Source: a virus | Lineage: Duplodnaviria > Heunggongvirae > Uroviricota > Caudoviricetes | Strand: one strand, 5' to 3' | Length of the DNA: 7,676 nt | IMG/VR virus record: IMGVR_UViG_2623620491_000013 | Span: 1 to 7,676 of that record | Part shown: positions 1 through 7,676 of the stretch, one piece after another | Layout: the number at the start of each line of letters is the position of its first letter | Numbering within the stretch: position 1 is the stretch's first letter | Program-made: the position numbers and the translations under genes | Notes under the pieces: generated by a model | Told to the model about the DNA's origin: nothing | What the model saw: the letters and a program-made list of their open reading frames with translations, nothing else | Database searches by the model: none

Positions 1-261
1 AAGCGTGCGTATTGCCTGAAAACACAACCCGCTACGGGGGAGACTTACCCGAAATCTGATTTATTCAACAAAGCCCGTCAGTGTGTGACCCCTGGCGATT
101 ATGTTCTTTATGAAGGTCGGACATATATCGCCTCGGCAAACAATATTAAAAAGAGAAAACTTTATATTCGTAGCCTGACTACAAAAACATGCATTTCTGA
201 CTGCATGATTAAAGTCTTCCTCGGTCGTGATGGTTTACCTGTAAAGGCGGAGTCATGGTAA
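1..261 (+). CDS. 3' end of an upstream prophage ORF, truncated by the window edge; product unknown
   Basis: Frame 1 is open from position 1 to TAA at 259-261 (86 sense codons, only in-frame ATG near the end), so an ATG-anchored ORF track misses it. Its stop overlaps the next start (TAATG). In the Rac gene order this slot is a kil-type gene, but I cannot confirm that from sequence. Confidence 0.4.
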
Positions 262-431
262 TGACTAAGAAAATAAAATGTGCTTATCACCTTTGCAATA
301 AAGAAATTGAAGAAAGCAAAATCATTACAAGACCACTTCATTTCATGCGTGGAGTTATACCAACGACGGAAATGAAAAAATATTGTAGTGAAATCTGTGC
401 CGAAAAAGACCAGATGGCACACGAACTTTAA
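261..431 (+). CDS. Small Cys4 zinc-ribbon protein, 56 aa (ydaE-like by position and length)
   Basis: ATG at 261 overlaps the upstream stop (TAATG); GGAG at 249-252 with 8-nt spacing; stop TAA at 429-431. Four Cys arranged C-x4-C ... C-x3-C (KCAYHLC ... YCSEIC). Not in the supplied ORF track (below size cut-off); the antisense 86-aa track ORF 162-422 is the less plausible reading. Confidence 0.55.
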   Translation: MTKKIKCAYHLCNKEIEESKIITRPLHFMRGVIPTTEMKKYCSEICAEKDQMAHEL

Positions 432-505
432 TTAACTGACTATCCGAAACTGAATTTATGCCAGCAATGGCAGGGATTCGCTCAACCTTAATTAAGGAGA
501 AAAAC

Positions 506-781
506 ATGATTACCAGTTATGAAGCCACTGTTGTTACTACTGATGACATTGTTCACGAAGTCAGCCTGGAAGGAAAGCGTATTGGCTACGTGATTAAAAC
601 AGAAAATAAAGAAGCCCCTTTCACTGTGGTTGATATCGACGGTCCATCAGGCAACGTTAAAACACTTAACGAAGGCGTCAAAAAAATGTGCCTAGTGCAT
701 ATCGGAAAGAATCTGCCCGCAGAAAAAAAAGCCGAATTTCTGGCAACTCTGATTGCAATGAAATTAAAAGGTGAAATCTGA
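506..781 (+). CDS. RacC-like small prophage protein, 91 aa
   Basis: ATG at 506 preceded by AAGGAG (494-499, 6-nt spacer); internal start of track ORF 458-781. Size and position immediately upstream of recE match racC of Rac-type prophages; assigned by synteny, not sequence recognition. Confidence 0.55.
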   Translation: MITSYEATVVTTDDIVHEVSLEGKRIGYVIKTENKEAPFTVVDIDGPSGNVKTLNEGVKKMCLVHIGKNLPAEKKAEFLATLIAMKLKGEI

Positions 782-787
782 AGAAAT

Positions 788-808
788 AGCCTGCGTATGA
801 CGCAGGCT
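788..808 (+). other. Perfect hairpin (9-bp stem AGCCTGCGT / ACGCAGGCT, 3-nt loop) in the racC-recE spacer, no U-tract
   Basis: Inverted repeat read directly from the sequence. Not followed by a T-run, so not a canonical intrinsic terminator; possibly an RNA processing/stability element or a protein-binding palindrome. Confidence 0.4.
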
Positions 809-880
809 ATGAACAGTGTGTATCCGGCAAGATTATTCACTGAACAAACGAATTTTAATCTGAGTTGAGGTTAAAAAACA

Positions 881-3800
881 ATGAGCACCGATAAACAAGT
901 TTACCCACTGTATTACGAAGCAAAAAATGACAAAGTAAGAAAACGTCTCGGTATTAAAGGCGGTTTTTACTGGGCTGAAGCGAAAAAATTATCCATTGCC
1001 ATCTCCCGTGGTGCTGTTGCGATTGACGATGCTGGCTACGATGAAGATGACTTCAAAAAACCTGTTCGCGTCAATTTGCCCGTTGTTGATGACCTCCCGC
1101 CAGAAGGCGTATTTGATACGGAATTCTGCAACCGTTACGAAAAAGGCGGGGAAGATGGCATCACAATGGTATTTATCGCGCCCTCACCCTCTGCGCAGGG
1201 CAAACCAGCCAGCACTGACAACACCAATGTTAATGGCGAAGACATGACGGAGATTGAGGAGAATATGCTACTCCCGATTTCTGGCCAGGAGCTGCCCATT
1301 CGCTGGCTTGCTCAACACGGCAGCGAAAAACCGGTAACGCACGTTTCACGCGACGAACTCCAGGCATTACACATTGCACGGGCTGAGGAACTACCAGCTG
1401 TTACTGCCCTGGCTGTTTCCCACAAAACCAGCCTGCTCGATCCGCTGGAAATTCGCGATCTCCACAAACTGGTGCGTGATACTGACAGAGTTTTCCCTAA
1501 TCCAGGCAATTCAAGCCTGGGGCTGATGACTGCTTTTTTCGAAGCATACATGGACGCAGACTACACCGATCGCGGTCTGCTGACAAAAGAGTGGATGAAA
1601 GGAAATCGTGTTTCACGCATCACGCGCACGGCTTCCGGCGCTAATGCTGGCGGCGGGAACCTCACCGATCGCGGCGAAGGTTTCGTTCACGATCTGACGT
1701 CACTGGCGCGCGACGTAGCCACTGGCGTACTGGCCCGTTCAATGGACGTGGACATTTATAACCTTCATCCGGCACACGCTAAACGTGTCGAGGAAATTAT
1801 CGCTGAAAATAAACCGCCCTTTTCTGTTTTCCGCGACAAATTCATCACCATGCCTGGCGGGCTGGATTATTCCCGTGCCATCGTGGTTGCGTCCGTAAAA
1901 GAAGCACCAATTGGGATCGAGGTTATCCCCGCACACGTCACTGAATATCTGAACAAAGTACTGACTGAAACTGATCATGCCAACCCTGATCCAGAAATCG
2001 TGGATATTGCCTGCGGTCGTTCCTCTGCCCCGATGCCGCAGCGTGTAACAGAAGAAGAAAAACAGGATGATGAAGAAAAACTGCAACCATCTTGCGCAAT
2101 GGCAGATGAACAGGCAACGGCTGAAACAGTGGAACCGGATGCAACTGAACATCATCAGGACACGCAGCCGCTGGATGCTCAGTCACAGGTAAATTCTGTT
2201 GATGCGAAATATCAGAAACTGCGGGCAGAACTCCATGAAGCCCGGAAAAACATTCCGCCCAAAAATCCTGTCGATGCAGACAAATTACTGGCTGCCTCTC
2301 GCGGAGAATTTGTTGAAGGGATTAGCGACCCGAATGATCCGAAATGGGTTAAGGGGATCCAGACCCGCGACTCTGTGTATCAGAATCAGCCAGAAACGGA
2401 ACAGAACGACCCAAATACGCAACAAAACGAGCCAGAAACGAAACAGCCTGAGCCAGTAGTGCAACAACAGGAAACGGAGAAAGTTTGCACCGCCTGCGGT
2501 AAGGCTGGCGGCGGCAACTGTCCTGACTGTGGCGCGGTGATGGGCGACGCAACGTATCAGAAAACCTTTAATGAAGAAAATCAGAATGAATATCAGGAAA
2601 AAGGTCTGGAGGAAATGGAAGGTGCTGAACATCCGCACAAGGAGAACGCTGGCAGCAATCCGCATTGCGATTGCAGTGATGAAGCTGGTGAAGCGACAGC
2701 ACCTGTAGTAACTGAAATCATGTGGCCGTCATATTTCGAGCCTGGCCGCTATGAAAACCTCCCGAACGAGGTTTATCACTCCGCCAACGGAATAAGCAGC
2801 ACAATGCTGAAGGATGCCCGCATCAGCCTGATGTATTACCACGGACGGCACATTGCCGGAACTATTCTGGGCGAGGAAAGTGATGCATTGCTGCGTGGGC
2901 GGATTATTCACAGCTATGTTCTGGAAACGGATAAATTCGCTGATGAGTATGCCATTCCGGTACCGGTTCCTGAATATGTGGTTACTACTTCTAACGAACT
3001 GATCGCCATCATTAAAAAACACAATGCCAGTCTGCCAGCACTGATGACACCAGAGCAGATGAAAGAGTGGATCGAAAGCTACAACAGCACTCTTATACAG
3101 CCACTGTCGGTAAGTGCCGGGGCCGAAGAAACAGGCATCCTTTACGGTTCGCTTCCGGAGGAATTCCGGCGTATTCCTGAGGGGGAAAAACACACAGCAT
3201 CAGCAATGAAAGCCTGTATTAAAGAATACAACGCAAGCCTCCCTCCTCTGCTGAAAGCCAGTGGAACACGGGAGCAGCTCCTGGAGCAAATTGAAACTGT
3301 AGATCCAGAACTGGCAAAAAAAGAACGTGCTAAATCTTTGCCTTACAACATCAGTGGCACAAAAGAGCAATTAACCGAAATCGCCCGGAAAATTCGCCCG
3401 GAACTGGTGACACTGGAGGACTGGCAAAAACGCCAGCAAGAAGAAAACGCCGGGAAAATGTTTATCAGTCCGGATATGTATGAACAGGCAAAAAATATTC
3501 ACGCAGCACTGCAAAACAATACTGATGCAGCAAGGCTACTCAACCACCCGGATCGCAAATCTGAAATCAGCTATTTCGGGTTTGATGAAGAAACCGGGCT
3601 GGAAATCAGGGTCCGTCCTGATATCGAAATCCGGCTGCCATACGAAAGCATTTGCGCCGACGTGAAGTCAGTCAGCCTCGGTTATGTGCGACAGGAACGA
3701 CTGAAAGATCGCCTGCACCGTGAAATTATTGAGCGTGATTATCACCTCAGCGCAGCAATGTATTGCGATGTGGCAAACCTGGACAAATTTTTCTGGATCT

Positions 3801-4009
3801 TCGTCAACAAAGATGCTGGCTATCACTGGGTGGCCGTCGTGGAAGCCTCGCAGGAACTCCTGGAACTTGGTCGACAGGAATATCGCCGGACGCTACGACA
3901 GATAAACGAAGCTCTGGAGACAAACAACTGGCCAGCACCGATTACCGAAAGTTATACCGACGAATTAAACGACTTTGATCTTCGTCGTTTTGAAGCACTG
4001 AGCATCTGA
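881..4009 (+). CDS. recE: Exodeoxyribonuclease VIII (RecE), 1042 aa, with C-terminal PD-(D/E)xK nuclease domain
   Basis: ATG at 881 with GAGG at 867-870. Protein contains segments I recognise as RecE-like ([43 protein letters not shown]...). C-terminal nuclease motif P913-D914 ... D927-V-K929 ([19 protein letters not shown]). Followed by a coupled annealing-protein gene and ralR, the Rac recET-lar arrangement. Confidence 0.82.
2486..2533 (+). other. Cys4 zinc-ribbon/knuckle motif inside RecE (C536-x2-C539-x7-C547-x2-C550)
   Basis: [16 protein letters not shown] read from the recE translation; sits just downstream of a Q/E/P/T-rich low-complexity linker. Confidence 0.5.
3005..3410 (+). repeat. 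Three imperfect tandem coding repeats (about 35-40 aa each) within the RecE C-terminal region
   Basis: Protein copies [23 protein letters not shown] / [27 protein letters not shown] / [21 protein letters not shown]. Nucleotide copies attaaaaaacacaatgccagtctgccagcactg (about 3011) and attaaagaatacaacgcaagcctccctcctctg (about 3218). Confidence 0.55.
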
Positions 4010-4020
4010 GGAAGGACACA

Positions 4021-5073
4021 ATGAACGAATTAACTCAACAAGAAAATATTAACTCTAATGTTGCGGTTTTCAGCCCTCAGTCCCTGGCTGCAATTCAGAC
4101 ATTTTCCCAGGTAATGGCTTCCGGCATGGCTACTGTACCGGAACACCTCCGGGGAAATCCATCAGACTGCATGGCCATCACCATGCAGGCGATGCAGTGG
4201 CAAATGAACCCTTACGCAGTAGCTCAGAAAACTTTCGTTGTGAATGGTGTGCTCGGATATGAAGCGCAACTGGTTAATGCCGTAATCAGTACTCGTGGGC
4301 CGCTAACCGGGCGTATTGAATATGACTGGTTCGGGCCGTGGGAAAAAATTATCGGGAAATTTGAAATTAGGAAGAACGACAAGGGGAAAGAATATCGTGT
4401 ACCTGGCTGGAAGCTGGCCGATGAAAACGGGATCGGAGTTCGCGTCCAGGCAACACTACGCGGAGAGAGCAAGCCACGCGTACTGGAGTTACTTCTGGCG
4501 CAGGCCAGAACACGTAACTCAACGTTATGGGCCGATGATCCTCGCCAGCAGCTTGCCTATCTGGCACTGAAACGCTGGGCGCGCCTTTATTGCCCTGAAG
4601 TGATTCTTGGAGTGTACACCCGGGACGAACTGGACGAACCACAGGAAAAAATCATTAATCCGGTTCAGGAACATAAAAATACATCCGCCTGCCGTGCGGA
4701 ACGTGAAACAACAATTATTGAGCAGGATGCCGGGGAAAACTGGATCAGTGCTTTCCGTGAACGTATTGAGCAGGCACAAAGCACCGGAGAAACAACATCA
4801 CTTCGCCAGGAAGTGGAAGATCATAAAAATACACTTGGCGCTCTCTACACAGAACTTAAAGGAAAAGTGGTTCAGCGTCATCACCGTCTCAATGCTATTG
4901 CCCGTATTGAGACGATGATAAATGACCTGCCTTCATCAGGTGATCCAGAAGCAGAACAAAAATTTATTGCTCTGGAAAATACGCTGAATGCTGCACGACC
5001 ACATCTGGGAGAATTATATGAGGCGTATAAAACGACACTGACAGATATGAAACCAGAATATATCGGCTCCTGA
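4021..5073 (+). CDS. RecT/Red-beta-family single-strand annealing protein, 350 aa, with a long C-terminal helical extension
   Basis: ATG at 4021; RBS GAGGAAGG (4008-4015) overlaps the recE stop (TGA 4007-4009), indicating translational coupling. N-terminal half has a Bet/RecT-like pattern (GNPSDCMAI...QWQMNPYAVAQK...GVLGYEAQ; LWADDPRQQLAYLALKRWARLY). I did not recognise the canonical K-12 RecT sequence, so the family assignment is by motif and position. Confidence 0.7.
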   Translation: MNELTQQENINSNVAVFSPQSLAAIQTFSQVMASGMATVPEHLRGNPSDCMAITMQAMQWQMNPYAVAQKTFVVNGVLGYEAQLVNAVISTRGPLTGRIEYDWFGPWEKIIGKFEIRKNDKGKEYRVPGWKLADENGIGVRVQATLRGESKPRVLELLLAQARTRNSTLWADDPRQQLAYLALKRWARLYCPEVILGVYTRDELDEPQEKIINPVQEHKNTSACRAERETTIIEQDAGENWISAFRERIEQAQSTGETTSLRQEVEDHKNTLGALYTELKGKVVQRHHRLNAIARIETMINDLPSSGDPEAEQKFIALENTLNAARPHLGELYEAYKTTLTDMKPEYIGS

Positions 5074-5080
5074 TATTTAC

Positions 5081-5106
5081 TATGGCGGTGTAGCCTCACC
5101 GCCATA
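5081..5106 (+). other. Perfect 10-bp stem hairpin (TATGGCGGTG / CACCGCCATA, 6-nt loop) between the annealing-protein stop and ralR
   Basis: Read directly from the sequence. Followed after 8 nt by a T-rich stretch (ACAAAACTTTATTTTA), so a weak terminator or leader structure for ralR. Overlaps the direct-repeat copy at 5074-5090. Confidence 0.45.
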
Positions 5107-5136
5107 ACAAAACTTTATTTTATGAGAGAAAAGACA

Positions 5137-5331
5137 ATGCGGTATGAAAAAGTCAAACCATGTCCGTTTTGTGGTTGTCCATCAGTAACGGTGAAAGCCA
5201 TTTCAGGATATTACCGCGCAAAGTGTAACGGATGCGAATCCCGAACCGGCTATAGTGGAAGTGAAAAAGAAGCACTCGAAAGATGGAATAAACGAACTAC
5301 TGGAAATAATAATGGAGGTGTTCATGTATAA
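5137..5331 (+). CDS. ralR: RalR (Lar): restriction-alleviation protein, reported to be the DNase toxin of a type I toxin-antitoxin pair in Rac
   Basis: 64 aa from ATG 5137 (purine-rich RBS GAGAGAAAAG at 5124-5133). Sequence MRYEKVKPCPFCGCPSVTVKAISGYYRAKCNGCESRTGYSGSEKEALERWNKR is recognised as Lar/RalR, with a C-x2-C ... C-x2-C zinc ribbon. The track ORF 5122-5331 is a 5-codon upstream extension. Confidence 0.85.
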   Translation: MRYEKVKPCPFCGCPSVTVKAISGYYRAKCNGCESRTGYSGSEKEALERWNKRTTGNNNGGVHV

Positions 5332-5512
5332 AATTACTACCACTATTGAAAAGGAAGGTGGCACTCCTACTAACTGGACAAGATATTCAAAATCTAAATT
5401 AACGAAATCAGAATGCGAAAAAATGCTCTCAGGGAAAAAAGAAGCAGGCGTTTCCAGAGAGCAGAAAGTAAAGCTGATAAATTTTAATTGCGAGAAACTT
5501 CTGTCCTCGTGA
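5324..5512 (+). CDS. YdaC-like small protein, 62 aa, overlapping the ralR 3' end
   Basis: ATG at 5324 with GGAGG at 5314-5318 (5-nt spacer); out-of-frame 8-nt overlap with the ralR stop (ATGTATAA). The track ORF 5255-5512 gives a longer N-terminus that lies inside ralR. Assigned by position in the Rac-type order. Confidence 0.5.
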   Translation: MYKITTTIEKEGGTPTNWTRYSKSKLTKSECEKMLSGKKEAGVSREQKVKLINFNCEKLLSS

Positions 5513-5567
5513 GTTGCATTATATACAAATTAGAACTTCATAGCTGATTATTAAAAATCAACCACAT

Positions 5568-5596
5568 CCGCCAGTATTCTGTATATTTACTGGCGG
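5568..5596 (+). other. Hairpin (9-bp stem CCGCCAGTA / TACTGGCGG, 11-nt loop) in the ydaC-xis spacer
   Basis: Read directly from the sequence; carries the second copy of the direct repeat ATATTTACT..GGCGGT also found at 5074-5090. Confidence 0.45.
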
Positions 5597-5618
5597 TCAT
5601 ATCGTAAGAGGTATGGCA

Positions 5619-5900
5619 ATGAATCTTGTGACACTCAAAACGTGGGGAAAACTCAGATATCCGGATAACCCACCATCAATATCAACGCTGAGACGATGGG
5701 CAAGGAATGGAAACATTTATCCTGCACCTGAACTACACGGGAGGAGTTACAGGGTGGTTCCGGAGGCTTTCTATATCAACCCAAATAAGGTTGATACCGA
5801 TATAACACACCATCAGCCTAATGGGCGACAAGGGAGAGACAGTCCGTTACTGGAGAAGTTAAAACATGCAGCGGAAAAAATACGATCCCAATTTGCCTAA
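5619..5900 (+). CDS. xis: Excisionase (Xis-like DNA-binding protein)
   Basis: Preferred start ATG 5619 (AAGAGG at 5606-5611, 7-nt spacer); the track start 5613 sits too close to the RBS. Overlaps the int start by 35 nt, as in lambda xis-int. Basic N-terminus with TLRRWARNG resembles the lambda Xis RRW region. Confidence 0.7.
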   Translation: MNLVTLKTWGKLRYPDNPPSISTLRRWARNGNIYPAPELHGRSYRVVPEAFYINPNKVDTDITHHQPNGRQGRDSPLLEKLKHAAEKIRSQFA

Positions 5901-6942
5901 AAACTTAACATATCGAAGGAGGGACAAAGCATATTACTGGCGCAACCCTCTGACGAAAGAAGAATTTACACTAGGTAAAATTTCAAGAAGAGATGCAGTA
6001 GCGCAGGCAATTGAAGCAAATCATTATATATACAAAAACTACTCTCCTGCTGCCTTAATTGAAAAGCTTAAAGGGTTCGACTCATTTACTATGGCAGACT
6101 GGATTGAACGTTACAAAACGATTCTTATAAGGAGAAAAGTGTCCAGAAATACTTATAAAATTCGGGTAAATCAACTGGAGACAATAAAAGAAAAATTGGG
6201 AGAGATTTTACTGACAGAAATAACCACTCGCCATATTGCCGAGTTTCTTGATTTGTGGATTGAAGGAGGGAAAAACACAATGGCAGGATCAATGCGTTCT
6301 GTGTTGTCTGATATGTTTCGTGAGGCCATTGTTGAAGGACGTATATCTCAAAATCCAGTAACGCCAACAAGAGCACCGAAAATAGTAGTTACAAGAGAAC
6401 GACTGAAACTAAAGACATACAACTGCATCAGGGAGGCAGCAGATCAACTTCCGGCATGGTTCCCATTAGCTATGGATTTAGCCCTTGTAACAGGACAACG
6501 TCGCGAAGACATAACGAATATGCGGTTTAGTGATATTTATGATGATCGTCTCCACATCAGGCAAATTAAGACAGGAATGATGATTGCTATCCCCCTGTCA
6601 CTCAGCCTTCCTGTCGCTGGTCTACGGCTTGGTACAGTAGTTGAACAGTGCCGCCTGGTAAGCCGGGGAGATTATCTAATCAGTGCCGGGATTAGAAAAA
6701 ACAGCCCTGACGGCAGCATTCACCCGGATGGCCTGACAAAAAAATTTGTCGCAGCCAGAAAATTAACAGGTATCCAGTTCAGTGAAAACCCACCAACTTT
6801 TCACGAGATCAGAAGTCTGGCTGGACGATTGTACAAAGAAACATGTGGAGAAGAATTTGCTCAGCGTCTACTTGGCCACACATCGGAGAAGACAACAAAA
6901 ATGTACCTTGATGAGAGAGAAAAAACGTACTTACTGCTCTGA
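5866..6942 (+). CDS. int: Lambda-family tyrosine integrase with N-terminal arm-binding domain
   Basis: 358 aa, colinear with lambda Int. N-terminus [22 protein letters not shown] matches lambda NLYIRNNGYYCYRDPRTGKEF; catalytic-region motifs [35 protein letters not shown] and [13 protein letters not shown] include the catalytic Tyr. GGAG at 5852-5855. Confidence 0.93.
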
Positions 6943-7008
6943 TTTTAACGTAAATGGATTGTTAAATGTATTTTGGTTGTGATATAACCAAAAAAGACTG
7001 GAATACAG

Positions 7009-7039
7009 AAATTCGAGTAAATTTCGGGGAATTTCGGGG
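7009..7039 (+). repeat. Tandem direct repeats: exact 10-bp AATTTCGGGG twice (7020-7039) plus a degenerate adjacent copy (7009-7019); candidate arm-type Int binding sites
   Basis: Repeats read directly. Three tandem short direct repeats between the int stop and the putative core mirror the P'1-P'3 arrangement of lambda attP. Function is inferred. Confidence 0.45.
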
Positions 7040-7048
7040 AGACGTTTG

Positions 7049-7061
7049 CAACTGATTGATT
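7049..7061 (-). promoter_or_regulatory. IHF consensus site (AATCAATCAGTTG = WATCAANNNNTTR) on the - strand
   Basis: Exact match to the IHF consensus, lying between the tandem repeats and the sdsR terminator palindrome, analogous to the H' site of lambda attP. Confidence 0.4.
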
Positions 7062-7073
7062 TTAAATACAATT

Positions 7074-7176
7074 AAAAAAAGACCGAATACGATTCCTGTA
7101 TTCGGTCCAGGGAAATGGCTCTTGGGAGAGAGCCGTGCGCTAAAAGTTGGCATTAATGCAGGCTTAGTTGCCTTGC
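7074..7176 (-). ncRNA. sdsR: SdsR (RyeB) small RNA
   Basis: The - strand reads GCAAGGCAACTAAGCCTGCATTAATGCCAACTTTTAGCGCACGGCTCTCTCCCAAGAGCCATTTCCCTGGACCGAATACAGGAATCGTATTCGGTC followed by T7, which I recognise as SdsR with its intrinsic terminator. A sigma-S type -10 lies immediately upstream. Confidence 0.8.
7081..7107. other. Candidate att core: perfect inverted repeat GACCGAATAC / GTATTCGGTC around a 7-bp spacer (GATTCCT), coincident with the sdsR terminator stem-loop
   Basis: Two inverted 10-bp half-sites around a 7-bp spacer resemble a C-overlap-C' core. Distances to the IHF site (about 35 bp) and tandem repeats (about 55-75 bp) approximate the lambda P' arm geometry. Inference only; the junction could lie further left (6943-7045). 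Confidence 0.35.
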
Positions 7177-7215
7177 CCTTTAAGAATAGATGACGACGCC
7201 AGGTTTTCCAGTTTG
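7177..7215 (-). promoter_or_regulatory. sdsR promoter with sigma-S type extended -10 (TCTATTCTTAA)
   Basis: On the - strand TCTATTCTTAAAGG immediately precedes the SdsR 5' end (plus coordinates 7177-7190); this is a near match to the sigma-S -10 consensus TCTATACTTAA including the -13 C. SdsR is a known RpoS-dependent sRNA. Confidence 0.55.
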
Positions 7216-7263
7216 CGTGCAAAATGGTCAATAAAAAGCGTGGTGGTCATCAGCTGAAATGTT

Positions 7264-7305
7264 AAAAACCGCCCGTTCTGGTGAAAGAACTGAGGCGGTT
7301 TTTTT
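7264..7305. terminator. Bidirectional intrinsic terminator between ryeA (+) and yebY (-)
   Basis: A5 (7264-7268), imperfect stem CCGCC-C-GTTCT ... AGAAC-TGA-GGCGG (7269-7298), T7 (7299-7305). U-tract on both strands: 7 U for the + strand transcript, 5 U for the - strand. Confidence 0.7.
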
Positions 7306-7334
7306 ATTGGAAATCAAAAGGCTATTTTAGGTAA

Positions 7335-7676
7335 TTAACAGAGTTTTTCAGCTCGTTCTATAAACGGTGCCAGACTCATTTTTTCGCCGGGATTGTTAGG
7401 ATCATCAATCTGAATCACCGAAATGGGTTGGGCATTGGTCTTCCCACTGGCAACTTCCTTTTGTGCGATATCGTTTAAAGGATACTGCACGAGGGTACTC
7501 GGATTAATAACATACAAAGCATTACCCGGTCGGCAAGTCAGCATCACCTCTTCGCGATTAAACGCCCATTTGTCTTTACCCACTTCAAAACGACTGACGG
7601 TAATCACCTGCGGTGCAGCCAGCGCCGCTGCAGAACTGGTGAGTAACAGAAACGCCAGAATACTTTTTTTCATCAT
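7335..7676 (-). CDS. yebY: YebY (DUF2511-type secreted protein) with Sec signal peptide
   Basis: 113 aa ORF; N-terminus [23 protein letters not shown] is a typical signal peptide with an AxA cleavage site. Length and position next to sdsR match yebY of E. coli. The start codon is at the window edge, so start choice (7676 or 7673) and RBS cannot be checked. Confidence 0.7.

Follow-up and report, generated by a model that had tools for sequence, protein, structure and literature searches.

The window, by which we mean the whole stretch of 7,676 nucleotides analysed here, holds a single prophage end and runs into host DNA on its right side, with its features collected in Table 1. The phage genes follow the order of the early region of the Rac prophage in Escherichia coli K-12 (kilR-ydaE-racC-recE-recT-family gene-ralR-rcbA/ydaC), and are succeeded by an excisionase gene, an integrase gene and an attachment site that overlaps the small RNA gene sdsR. 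An earlier reading of the bases without database searches (the sequence-only reading) had named this gene order and had placed the prophage at the sdsR/yebY locus. The comparison with K-12 upheld the first claim, and Rfam matches to SdsR and SraC/RyeA, with yebY alongside, settled the second. These results support a reading of the window as one end, that next to the integrase, of an E. coli prophage of the Rac family which carries a lambda-type integration cassette in place of its own.

Table 1. Features of the window, with coordinates in window bases (a dot marks features given without a strand).
Feature	Position	Strand	Basis or remark
IS903B (IS5-family) insertion sequence, terminal 75 bases	1-75	.	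inserted in kilR
kilR, 5′-truncated	76-261	+	K-12 KilR residues 16-73, 90% aa identity
ydaE (zinc-binding protein of Rac)	261-431	+	73% aa identity to K-12 YdaE; annotation
racC	506-781	+	96% aa identity to K-12 RacC over 91 residues
recE (exonuclease VIII), mosaic, 1042 aa	881-4009	+	
Second exchanged module: RecE nuclease-domain coding part and recT-family gene	2694-5115	+	
RecT-family single-strand annealing protein, 350 aa	4021-5073	+	Pfam PF03837
ralR (type I toxin and restriction alleviation protein, Lar family)	5137-5331	+	95% aa identity; PF14354
rcbA/ydaC (DUF1187)	5324-5512	+	97% aa identity; PF06688, E = 5.6e-37
RalA antitoxin sRNA, antisense to rcbA	5330-5508	-	Rfam RF02694
Mosaic joint, Rac early block/integration cassette	5562-5563	.	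rcbA-xis intergenic, 50 bp past rcbA stop codon
Excisionase, lambda Xis family	5619-5900	+	PF07825 Exc, E = 6.5e-14; annotation
Lambda-family tyrosine integrase, 358 aa; arm-binding, central and catalytic domains	5866-6942	+	PF09003, PF22022, PF00589
Int-proximal attachment arm (P′ arm in lambda terms)	6943-7072	.	
ryeA (sraC) body	7070-7214	+	Rfam RF00101, 179 bits
att core, 32 bp	7073-7104	.	final 31 nt of sdsR, which form its terminator hairpin and U-tail, and 1 further nt
sdsR (ryeB) sRNA gene	7074-7173	-	Rfam RF00111, 118.1 bits, model positions 1-100
yebY, host gene	7335-7676	-	

The left edge of the window belongs to an insertion sequence. The inverted-repeat end of IS903B, GGCTTTGTTGAATAAATC, reads on the reverse strand with its terminus at base 75; bases 1–80 have matches of 98.8–100% in 1365 genomes, annotated ‘IS5-like element IS903B family transposase’, and all prophage matches begin at base 76. 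The early open reading frames that had been taken to run from base 1 are accordingly prophage genes from base 76 on, with bases 1–75 being the IS903B end. The first 12 codons of kilR were lost to this element; were the gene whole, its start would fall at window base 40, and the intact kilR of the relative LWY24 maps to bases 40–261. The kilR product is the FtsZ inhibitor of Rac, and in the window's strain the gene would have been inactivated by the insertion. Given the interruption at base 75, the prophage may be defective or rearranged upstream. Two points had escaped the sequence-only reading, namely this IS903B end truncating kilR and, as described below, the RecE nuclease domain with RecT as a second swapped module.

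At the DNA level the early block matches K-12 Rac in three segments, 76–888 (91.7%), 1219–2693 (89.8%) and 5116–5562 (93.5%), with recE bases 889–1218 also diverged. The colinear order and this homology identify a Rac-family early region, as does the presence of the RalR toxin gene with its cis-antisense RalA sRNA, which is full length and scores 219.7 bits against a gathering score of 170. The early gene order and the RalR/RalA pair are common to the window, to K-12 Rac, which is a cryptic prophage, and to the inducible Rac-family phages Rac-SA53 (KU052037), Sp10 and CP-933R; the window's relatives also have the Rac-type immunity and replication genes (ydaS/T/V) in common with Rac. Measured against K-12 Rac in the strict sense, however, the window has neither the IntR/XisR module with insertion at ttcA nor the K-12-type RecE nuclease domain with a RecT orthologue, and its kilR is cut by IS903B.

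Homology to K-12 recE DNA is confined to bases 1219–2693, ending at codon 605, and the last ∼437 residues are non-homologous to K-12 at the DNA level, as is the whole of 2694–5115 to K-12 Rac. BLASTP aligns RecE residues 58–755 with K-12 RecE at 70% identity, while the C-terminal PDDEXK nuclease domain is of a different allele, with 29% identity over the last ∼130 residues. The nuclease domain contains an insertion of ∼150 residues, for which relaxed Pfam thresholds gave sub-threshold SAP and HeH-like matches only and no domain was called; a PDB search with RecE matched a single entry, the RecE structure 3H4R (E = 8.7e-7). This PDDEXK exonuclease (PF12684, E = 4.9e-13) adjoins the RecT-family annealase (E = 3.5e-43), so that the two form a RecET-type pair. 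The ‘annealing protein’ of the sequence-only reading is therefore sound as a family assignment, but not as a likeness to K-12 RecT (269 residues), to which the 350-residue protein has no significant BLASTP match; a PDB sequence search with it returned no relative. The window's 2694–5115 allele occurs in 159 of 5426 complete E. coli genomes, at ttcA as well as at yebY sites, and the variant recET allele is also present in Rac prophages at ttcA. The integration cassette is not the sole exchanged module in the window. Exchanged together at RecE codon ∼605, the nuclease domain and RecT could conceivably serve as an orthogonal RecET pair for recombineering.

Turning to the cassette, the integrase is colinear with lambda Int, as had been proposed, with 347 of 358 residues aligned at 38.6% identity (E = 2.6e-83). 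Its residues R212, K235, H313, R316, H338 and Y347 align with the lambda RKHRHY catalytic set, and matches to PF09003 (28.1 bits, cut-off 22) and PF22022 (41.3 bits, cut-off 27) identify the arm- and core-binding domains. A lambda-type partner excisionase gene, whose product has 29% identity to lambda Xis (E = 2e-7), lies just upstream and overlaps int by 35 bases. The modules of lambda and HK022 share with this cassette the three-domain Int with six catalytic residues, the Xis family, the xis-int overlap and an int gene adjoining att; candidate arm-type repeats may likewise flank the present core on both sides. The window's Int differs in being only 39–41% identical to theirs, in a core and target formed by the sdsR terminator where the lambda attB lies between gal and bio, and in a candidate arm motif, AATTTCGGGR, that is unrelated to that of lambda. 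Int and Xis are probably active.

None of this resembles the module of K-12 Rac. There, a 411-residue IntR (Arm-DNA-bind_2) and XisR (DUF1233) serve a ttcA target, whereas the window has the 358-residue Int and the Exc-family Xis (Arm-DNA-bind_1 and Exc in Pfam, as in lambda) and an sdsR target. Int found no BLASTP match to K-12 IntR even at E ≤ 10, and the cassette had no BLASTP similarity to K-12 XisR. The sequence-only reading had put K-12 Rac at another site, and had allowed that a close relationship between the two integrases at a shared locus would overturn its case; in K-12, Rac occupies ttcA and carries intR and xisR, and its IntR is without BLASTP similarity to the window's Int.

Bases 7073–7676 are identical to the empty pphA-sdsR-yebY site of K-12 at 602 of 604 positions. 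The att core was defined by comparison with the K-12 attB, the far junction of LWY24 and the attP of PP818812, and phage homology ends at 7104, in agreement with the right boundary of 7107 given before these comparisons. Within the core, bases 7079 and 7088 are phage-type and base 7100 is host-type, which places strand exchange within 7089–7099. Between pphA and sdsR, LWY24 carries a single 43-kb prophage; the 32-bp repeat stands at either end of it, and phage and host variants are distributed reciprocally over the two junctions, an indirect sign of site-specific integration and excision. The gene sdsR retains its full length, as its 3′ end is replaced by a nearly identical one from the phage. 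For ryeA, the body is severed from its native promoter and first ∼53–63 nt; in K-12 ryeA starts 37 nt upstream of the core, and since strands are exchanged downstream of the promoter and 5′ end, these are carried to the other end of the prophage. Two tandem copies of AATTTCGGGG, at 7020–7029 and 7030–7039, are candidate arm-type Int sites. The 47.5-kb phage record contains three exact copies of the motif AATTTCGGGR and no more, all of them in attP, two in tandem in the arm next to int and a third in the distal arm; from this short motif we infer that the tandem copies may be arm-type sites.

The 3′ end of sdsR/ryeB is a documented phage attachment site (PMC7380047, PMC3603311, PMC3333887, PMC5913331), and the sdsR site has been described as a hot spot for foreign DNA. 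In Salmonella phage PhiW104 the att site falls inside the final 23 bp of ryeB (Balbontin 2008, as relayed in PMC7380047). PhiW104 and other elements of the ryeA/ryeB hot spot have att in the last ∼23–31 bp of sdsR/ryeB, internal to ryeA, and integration of the PhiW104 type leaves sdsR intact while giving ryeA a different 5′ part. The same is seen here, with a core that coincides with the sdsR terminator and a phage copy that restores the gene. The hosts differ (Salmonella for PhiW104, E. coli here), and the likeness is one of att site. A partial Int in a Salmonella prophage record is 72.6% identical to the window's Int, and a Yersinia prophage adjoins yebY. In the literature we found no named E. 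coli prophage at yebY and no specific description of Rac-like mosaics.

The joint between the two lineages of sequence falls at 5562/5563, and in every ttcA-type Rac the homology to the window stops at 5562. Among the 5426 complete E. coli genomes, the ralR-rcbA block is present in 1922 and the window's xis-int in 233 (about 4%), almost always joined to ralR-rcbA; 228 genomes matched over at least 80% of 5116–7072, a span from ralR to int that includes the joint. The same mosaic is found in these 228 genomes (for example LWY24, O26 RM8426 and O55:H7 DEC5A) and in the phage record PP818812.1 (‘Actinobacillus phage vB_Apl-pPE4’), which differ from the window only in allelic details, namely in their late genes, in the 5′ region of recE and in which recET allele they have, and in which the IS903B insertion in kilR is absent. 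PP818812.1 has the same int (97.8% aa identity), xis and attP as the window, and ∼69% of it aligns at 93% identity with Rac-SA53, a ttcA/intR phage, with the unaligned parts including the whole xis-int-attP segment.

Two genomes display the exchange from opposite sides. In O145:H28 RM12581, a Rac prophage at ttcA with xisR-intR is colinear with bases 76–5562 of the window (95.4%) and breaks off exactly at 5562, and in O26 RM8426 the window's xis-int-att at yebY (97.3% over 5118–7676) is joined to a K-12-type recE/recT. This pair is the cleanest evidence for a swap, and among the complete genomes each recET allele is seen with each int type, in four combinations. The modular exchange of the integration cassette that had been suggested at the outset is thus borne out by genome, phage-record and Pfam comparisons.

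A one-genome-per-species scan with the Int protein returned only two close relatives, in Shigella flexneri and E. coli, both with homology beginning at 5546. At first sight these suggested a fusion of the cassette with an early region foreign to Rac, a reading that we rejected: in the E. coli relative, open reading frames and Pfam place an IS3-family transposase just upstream of 5546, which makes this an IS insertion and no independent joint, and the S. flexneri relative breaks at the same position.

Taken together, we consider it very probable that the window is the end of a lambdoid Rac-family prophage at the 3′ end of sdsR, with an early block allelic with that of Rac at ttcA and an integration module of a different lineage. 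The prophage would be integrated between pphA and yebY, the junction in the window being attL in lambda nomenclature, read in reverse. The left-operon block from kilR to rcbA is allelic with that of the ttcA Rac prophages, and the integration module would consist of the lambda-type Xis, an Int of the heterobivalent lambda type and an attP in which the SdsR terminator is duplicated as the 32-bp core. Recombination between lambdoid phages would have created the intergenic joint, after which the cassette would redirect the phage from ttcA to sdsR. Integration would proceed as in lambda, with Int binding arm and core sites and strands being exchanged within the 11 identical bases 7089–7099; the phage-borne 3′ end would keep sdsR intact, and the ryeA promoter and 5′ end would be displaced to the far prophage end. 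The lineage also goes on swapping internal modules with ttcA-type Rac, of which 2694–5115 is the clearest case.

The direction of the original swap, from a ttcA to an sdsR cassette, we infer. The reverse polarity, with the sdsR-targeting lambda-type cassette ancestral and the ttcA-type intR/xisR of K-12 Rac swapped in, we regard as rather improbable. The data themselves give no polarity, and conservation of the Int clade and of the sdsR site extends over several genera (PhiW104, the Salmonella record and the Yersinia prophage). Against this, ttcA/intR with ralR-rcbA is ∼7 times commoner (∼1690 versus 228 genomes), although frequency is weak evidence of ancestry, and one paper considers the Rac prophage at ttcA to be ancient (PMC4632033).

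It is very unlikely that two adjacent elements, a Rac-like remnant without an integrase and an unrelated integrase-only remnant at sdsR, lie side by side and were never one phage. Tandem or decayed elements are frequent at prophage hot spots, as sdsR is described to be, and the window's prophage is interrupted by an IS, yet the joint recurs in 228 genomes with nearly every int copy linked to ralR-rcbA, LWY24 has a single prophage with one int bounded by att repeats, and the 47.5-kb phage genome record unites the two parts and has just one integrase. A chimeric assembly, or an IS-driven rearrangement peculiar to the strain, as might be thought from the IS903B end at the left edge of the window and from the IS3-family element at ∼5546 in the E. 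coli relative and the S. flexneri break there, has a negligible chance of mimicking the mosaic, with IS903B 5.5 kb from the joint and the same joint recurring at 96–99.8% identity in hundreds of independently finished genomes; the presence of the joint in 228 complete genomes excludes an assembly artefact in practice.

The swap of the cassette is a phenomenon that is common and of a textbook kind, and its importance beyond annotation is small. As a clean example of lambdoid modular evolution, it sets one conserved early block beside two unrelated integration cassettes that dictate two sites, ttcA and sdsR, with a partner-specific exonuclease-annealase unit reassorting independently within that block. 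It also makes recE, ralR and kilR unsuitable as markers of the ttcA locus. Genomes with both types of prophage have several kilobases repeated at 90–95% identity, which could mediate rearrangements.

The part of experimental interest, and the only one, would be a possible effect on the SdsR and RyeA sRNAs in E. coli lysogens. Lysogeny by PhiW104 lowers RyeA and raises SdsR, as reported in Salmonella only (Balbontin 2008, as relayed in PMC7380047), and expression of both may be altered in E. coli lysogens too. In the window, a promoter-like TTTGCA-16-TACAAT at 7045–7072 points into ryeA and is conserved in PP818812. A promoter scan gave fewer sites than shuffled controls, and the promoter call, like that of the arm sites, rests on short motifs. 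It is conceivable, though doubtful, that the int-proximal arm supplies a surrogate promoter here which drives a 5′-altered RyeA; lysogeny would then reset the balance of SdsR toxin and RyeA antitoxin, and downstream pphA expression, in E. coli. If so, the lineage affected would amount to ∼4% of complete E. coli genomes, many STEC included.

Nine genes, all on the plus strand, take up positions 76–6942 of the window (table below). As far as rcbA, their order equals that of Rac in E. coli K-12 (ttcA, intR, xisR, rcbA, ralR, recT, recE, racC, ydaE, kilR), in agreement with the Rac-type early region proposed by the sequence-only reading. Amino acid identities to the K-12 proteins are 90% for KilR, 73% for YdaE, 96% for RacC, 95% for RalR and 97% for RcbA. 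Comparing the DNA with BLASTN, we found three segments homologous to K-12 Rac: 76–888 (91.7% identity), 1219–2693 (89.8%) and 5116–5562 (93.5%). K-12 Rac DNA gave no BLASTN match to 889–1218, 2694–5115 or the sequence past 5562. The racC gene is intact here and frameshifted in the prophage of LWY24, a 98.9% identical relative.

Features of the window with coordinates and strand
Feature	Position	Strand	Remarks
kilR	76–261	+	5'-truncated
ydaE	261–431	+	
racC	506–781	+	
recE	881–4009	+	1042 aa
recT-family gene	4021–5073	+	350 aa
ralR	5137–5331	+	
rcbA/ydaC	5324–5512	+	DUF1187
RalA antitoxin sRNA	5330–5508	−	antisense to rcbA; Rfam, 219.7 bits
Excisionase gene	5619–5900	+	
Integrase gene	5866–6942	+	358 aa
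SraC/RyeA sRNA	7070–7214	+	overlaps SdsR; Rfam, 179 bits
SdsR sRNA	7074–7173	−	overlaps SraC/RyeA; Rfam, 118 bits
yebY	7335–7676	−	host gene at window's right end

The integrase is of the lambda type, aligning with lambda Int over 347 residues (38.6% identity, E = 2.6e-83) with all six catalytic residues conserved, and the excisionase is 29% identical to lambda Xis (E = 2e-7). K-12 IntR gave no BLASTP match to the window integrase, even at E ≤ 10. The two cassettes fall cleanly into separate Pfam families, with Arm-DNA-bind_1 (PF09003) and Exc (PF07825) in the window, both as in lambda, and Arm-DNA-bind_2 (PF12167) and DUF1233 (PF06806) in K-12 Rac. The locations also differ, K-12 Rac lying at ttcA and this prophage at sdsR/yebY: from 7073 on, 602 of 604 window bases agree with the empty K-12 pphA-ryeA/sdsR-yebY site. 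The K-12 Rac integrase is therefore neither related to this one by BLASTP nor at the same locus, and the earlier observation of a lambda-type cassette at a non-Rac site stands.

Lambdoid phages that are otherwise alike swap integration cassettes, a textbook process, and the modular exchange suggested for this prophage is supported by direct comparative evidence from four sources. The Rac prophage of O145:H28 RM12581, at ttcA with xisR-intR, is colinear with window 76–5562 at 95.4%, variant recE/recT included, and diverges from 5562/5563, a joint 50 bp past the rcbA stop codon. In O26 RM8426 the window's xis-int-att adjoins yebY (97.3% over 5118–7676), and recE (2652 bp) and recT (810 bp) are of the K-12 type. 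With a query across both joints, each of the four possible pairings of a recT allele with an xis type was found among complete genomes. Finally, PP818812.1 aligns with Rac-SA53, an inducible phage of the ttcA/intR type (KU052037), over 32.8 of its 47.5 kb (69% of its length, 93% identity), and the unaligned parts include the entire ~1.75 kb holding xis, int and attP. Under its label, PP818812.1 is Actinobacillus phage vB_Apl-pPE4 with A. pleuropneumoniae as host; the phage is of enterobacterial lambdoid type, the E. coli sdsR terminator forms the core of its attP, and the host label looks doubtful.

Directly after the joint and upstream of xis lies a perfect 9-bp inverted repeat, CCGCCAGTA…TACTGGCGG (5569–5597), which is conserved in all aligned sdsR-type relatives and at which ttcA-type Rac diverges; it may form a hairpin with a regulatory or processing role.

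Among 5426 complete E. coli genomes, the ralR-rcbA block occurs in 1922 and the window-type xis-int in 233 (nearly full length in 226). The stretch from ralR to int, with the joint, is covered to 80% or more in 228 genomes; variant recT accompanies window-type xis-int in 57, and 48 match the window over 80% or more of its full length. In E. coli the cassette is practically always joined to a Rac-type early block, and this combination represents an established sub-lineage of the Rac family rather than an isolated case; the mosaic prophage is ordinary, with many instances already in public genomes. An IS3-family element lies just upstream of xis in E. coli ECMA0423 (about window 5546), and thus separates the cassette from its former early region; homology breaks at the same position in Shigella flexneri SFBU1023. 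Only early and regulatory segments of the 43-kb LWY24 prophage are shared with Rac-SA53 and K-12 Rac; neither of these aligns with its late region (baseplate J/gp47-type tail genes), so the late genes of the sdsR-type lineage are mosaic too. Some genomes hold two or three ralR-rcbA copies, representing ttcA-type and sdsR-type prophages together. These share kilobases at 90–95% identity ~0.5 Mb apart, which could support inter-prophage recombination.

On sequence comparison, segment 2694–5115, overlooked earlier, is a second mosaic module, exchanged as one unit relative to K-12. On the left it joins at codon 605 of RecE, where the coding part for the C-terminal PDDEXK nuclease domain begins, and on the right between recT and ralR. 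RecE is 70% identical to K-12 RecE over residues 58–755, and only 29% in the last ~130 residues. The nuclease domain matches Pfam DUF3799 at residues 639–703 and 855–1019, with RecE structure 3H4R as its sole PDB match. BLASTP found no match between the annealing protein (350 aa) and K-12 RecT (269 aa); Pfam firmly assigns the protein to the RecT family (E = 3.5e-43). The variant nuclease domain and RecT occur in 159 of the 5426 genomes, at ttcA and sdsR sites alike. In RecET/Red systems the exonuclease–annealase interaction is partner-specific, which would explain their joint transfer. Rac-SA53 recE (3147 bp) and recT (1104 bp) differ in length from the window's and share only partial DNA homology with them, which suggests a third allele. 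The PDDEXK domain is split by a ~150-residue insertion (residues ~705–855, window ~2990–3445) containing three similar motifs, one with KKHNASLP; its Pfam matches to SAP, HeH and Ish1 were all sub-threshold.

LWY24 carries a single prophage between pphA and sdsR, and a 32-bp sequence equivalent to window 7073–7104 is repeated at its far junction. The PP818812 attP includes the same 32 bp, and its homology to the window stops exactly at 7104. The three variable core positions read G, C, A in attB (K-12), A, T, T in attP, A (7079), T (7088), A (7100) at the window junction and G, C, T at the LWY24 far junction, the pattern expected of reciprocal exchange inside the 11 identical bases 7089–7099. 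Because this core serves as the Rho-independent SdsR terminator, the phage restores the sdsR 3' end. The lysogen's terminator stem (7080–7108) is a host/phage hybrid: T at 7088 comes from the phage, and where the K-12 stem has a U·G wobble it gives a U-A pair. K-12 ryeA starts 37 nt upstream of the core, so its promoter and 5' end have moved to the other prophage end. A promoter-like TTTGCA-16-TACAAT (7045–7072), kept in PP818812, lies in the phage arm directly upstream of the core and is directed into the 5'-truncated ryeA; it is a consensus match that could drive a chimeric RyeA. Two tandem copies of AATTTCGGGG occupy 7020–7039. AATTTCGGGR has just three exact copies in the 47.5-kb PP818812, all within attP (two int-proximal, one distal), and we infer only that these are candidate arm-type Int sites.

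The sdsR/ryeB 3' end is already published as a phage attachment site (PMC7380047, PMC3603311, PMC3333887, PMC5913331). In Salmonella DT104, phage PhiW104 attaches at the final 23 bp of ryeB, and in its lysogens transcription of ryeA falls and that of ryeB increases (reviewed in PMC7380047, from Balbontin et al. 2008). In Yersinia, a prophage is flanked by an integrase gene on one side and a yebY-family gene on the other (PMC12653942). A description of Rac at ttcA also reports that strain CFT073 has a recE-carrying relative elsewhere, at potB (PMC4632033).

The prophage does not include bases 1–75, which are one end of an IS903B (IS5-family) element inserted in kilR; the terminal inverted repeat of the element has its last base at 75. 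This end sequence is present in 1365 of the 5426 genomes, frequently on plasmids. The insertion in kilR is absent from the RefSeq complete E. coli genomes, in which all prophage matches begin at base 76. The intact kilR of a close relative corresponds to window 40–261, so the first 12 codons were lost to IS903B. KilR is a toxic FtsZ inhibitor, and its loss may be selectively favoured.
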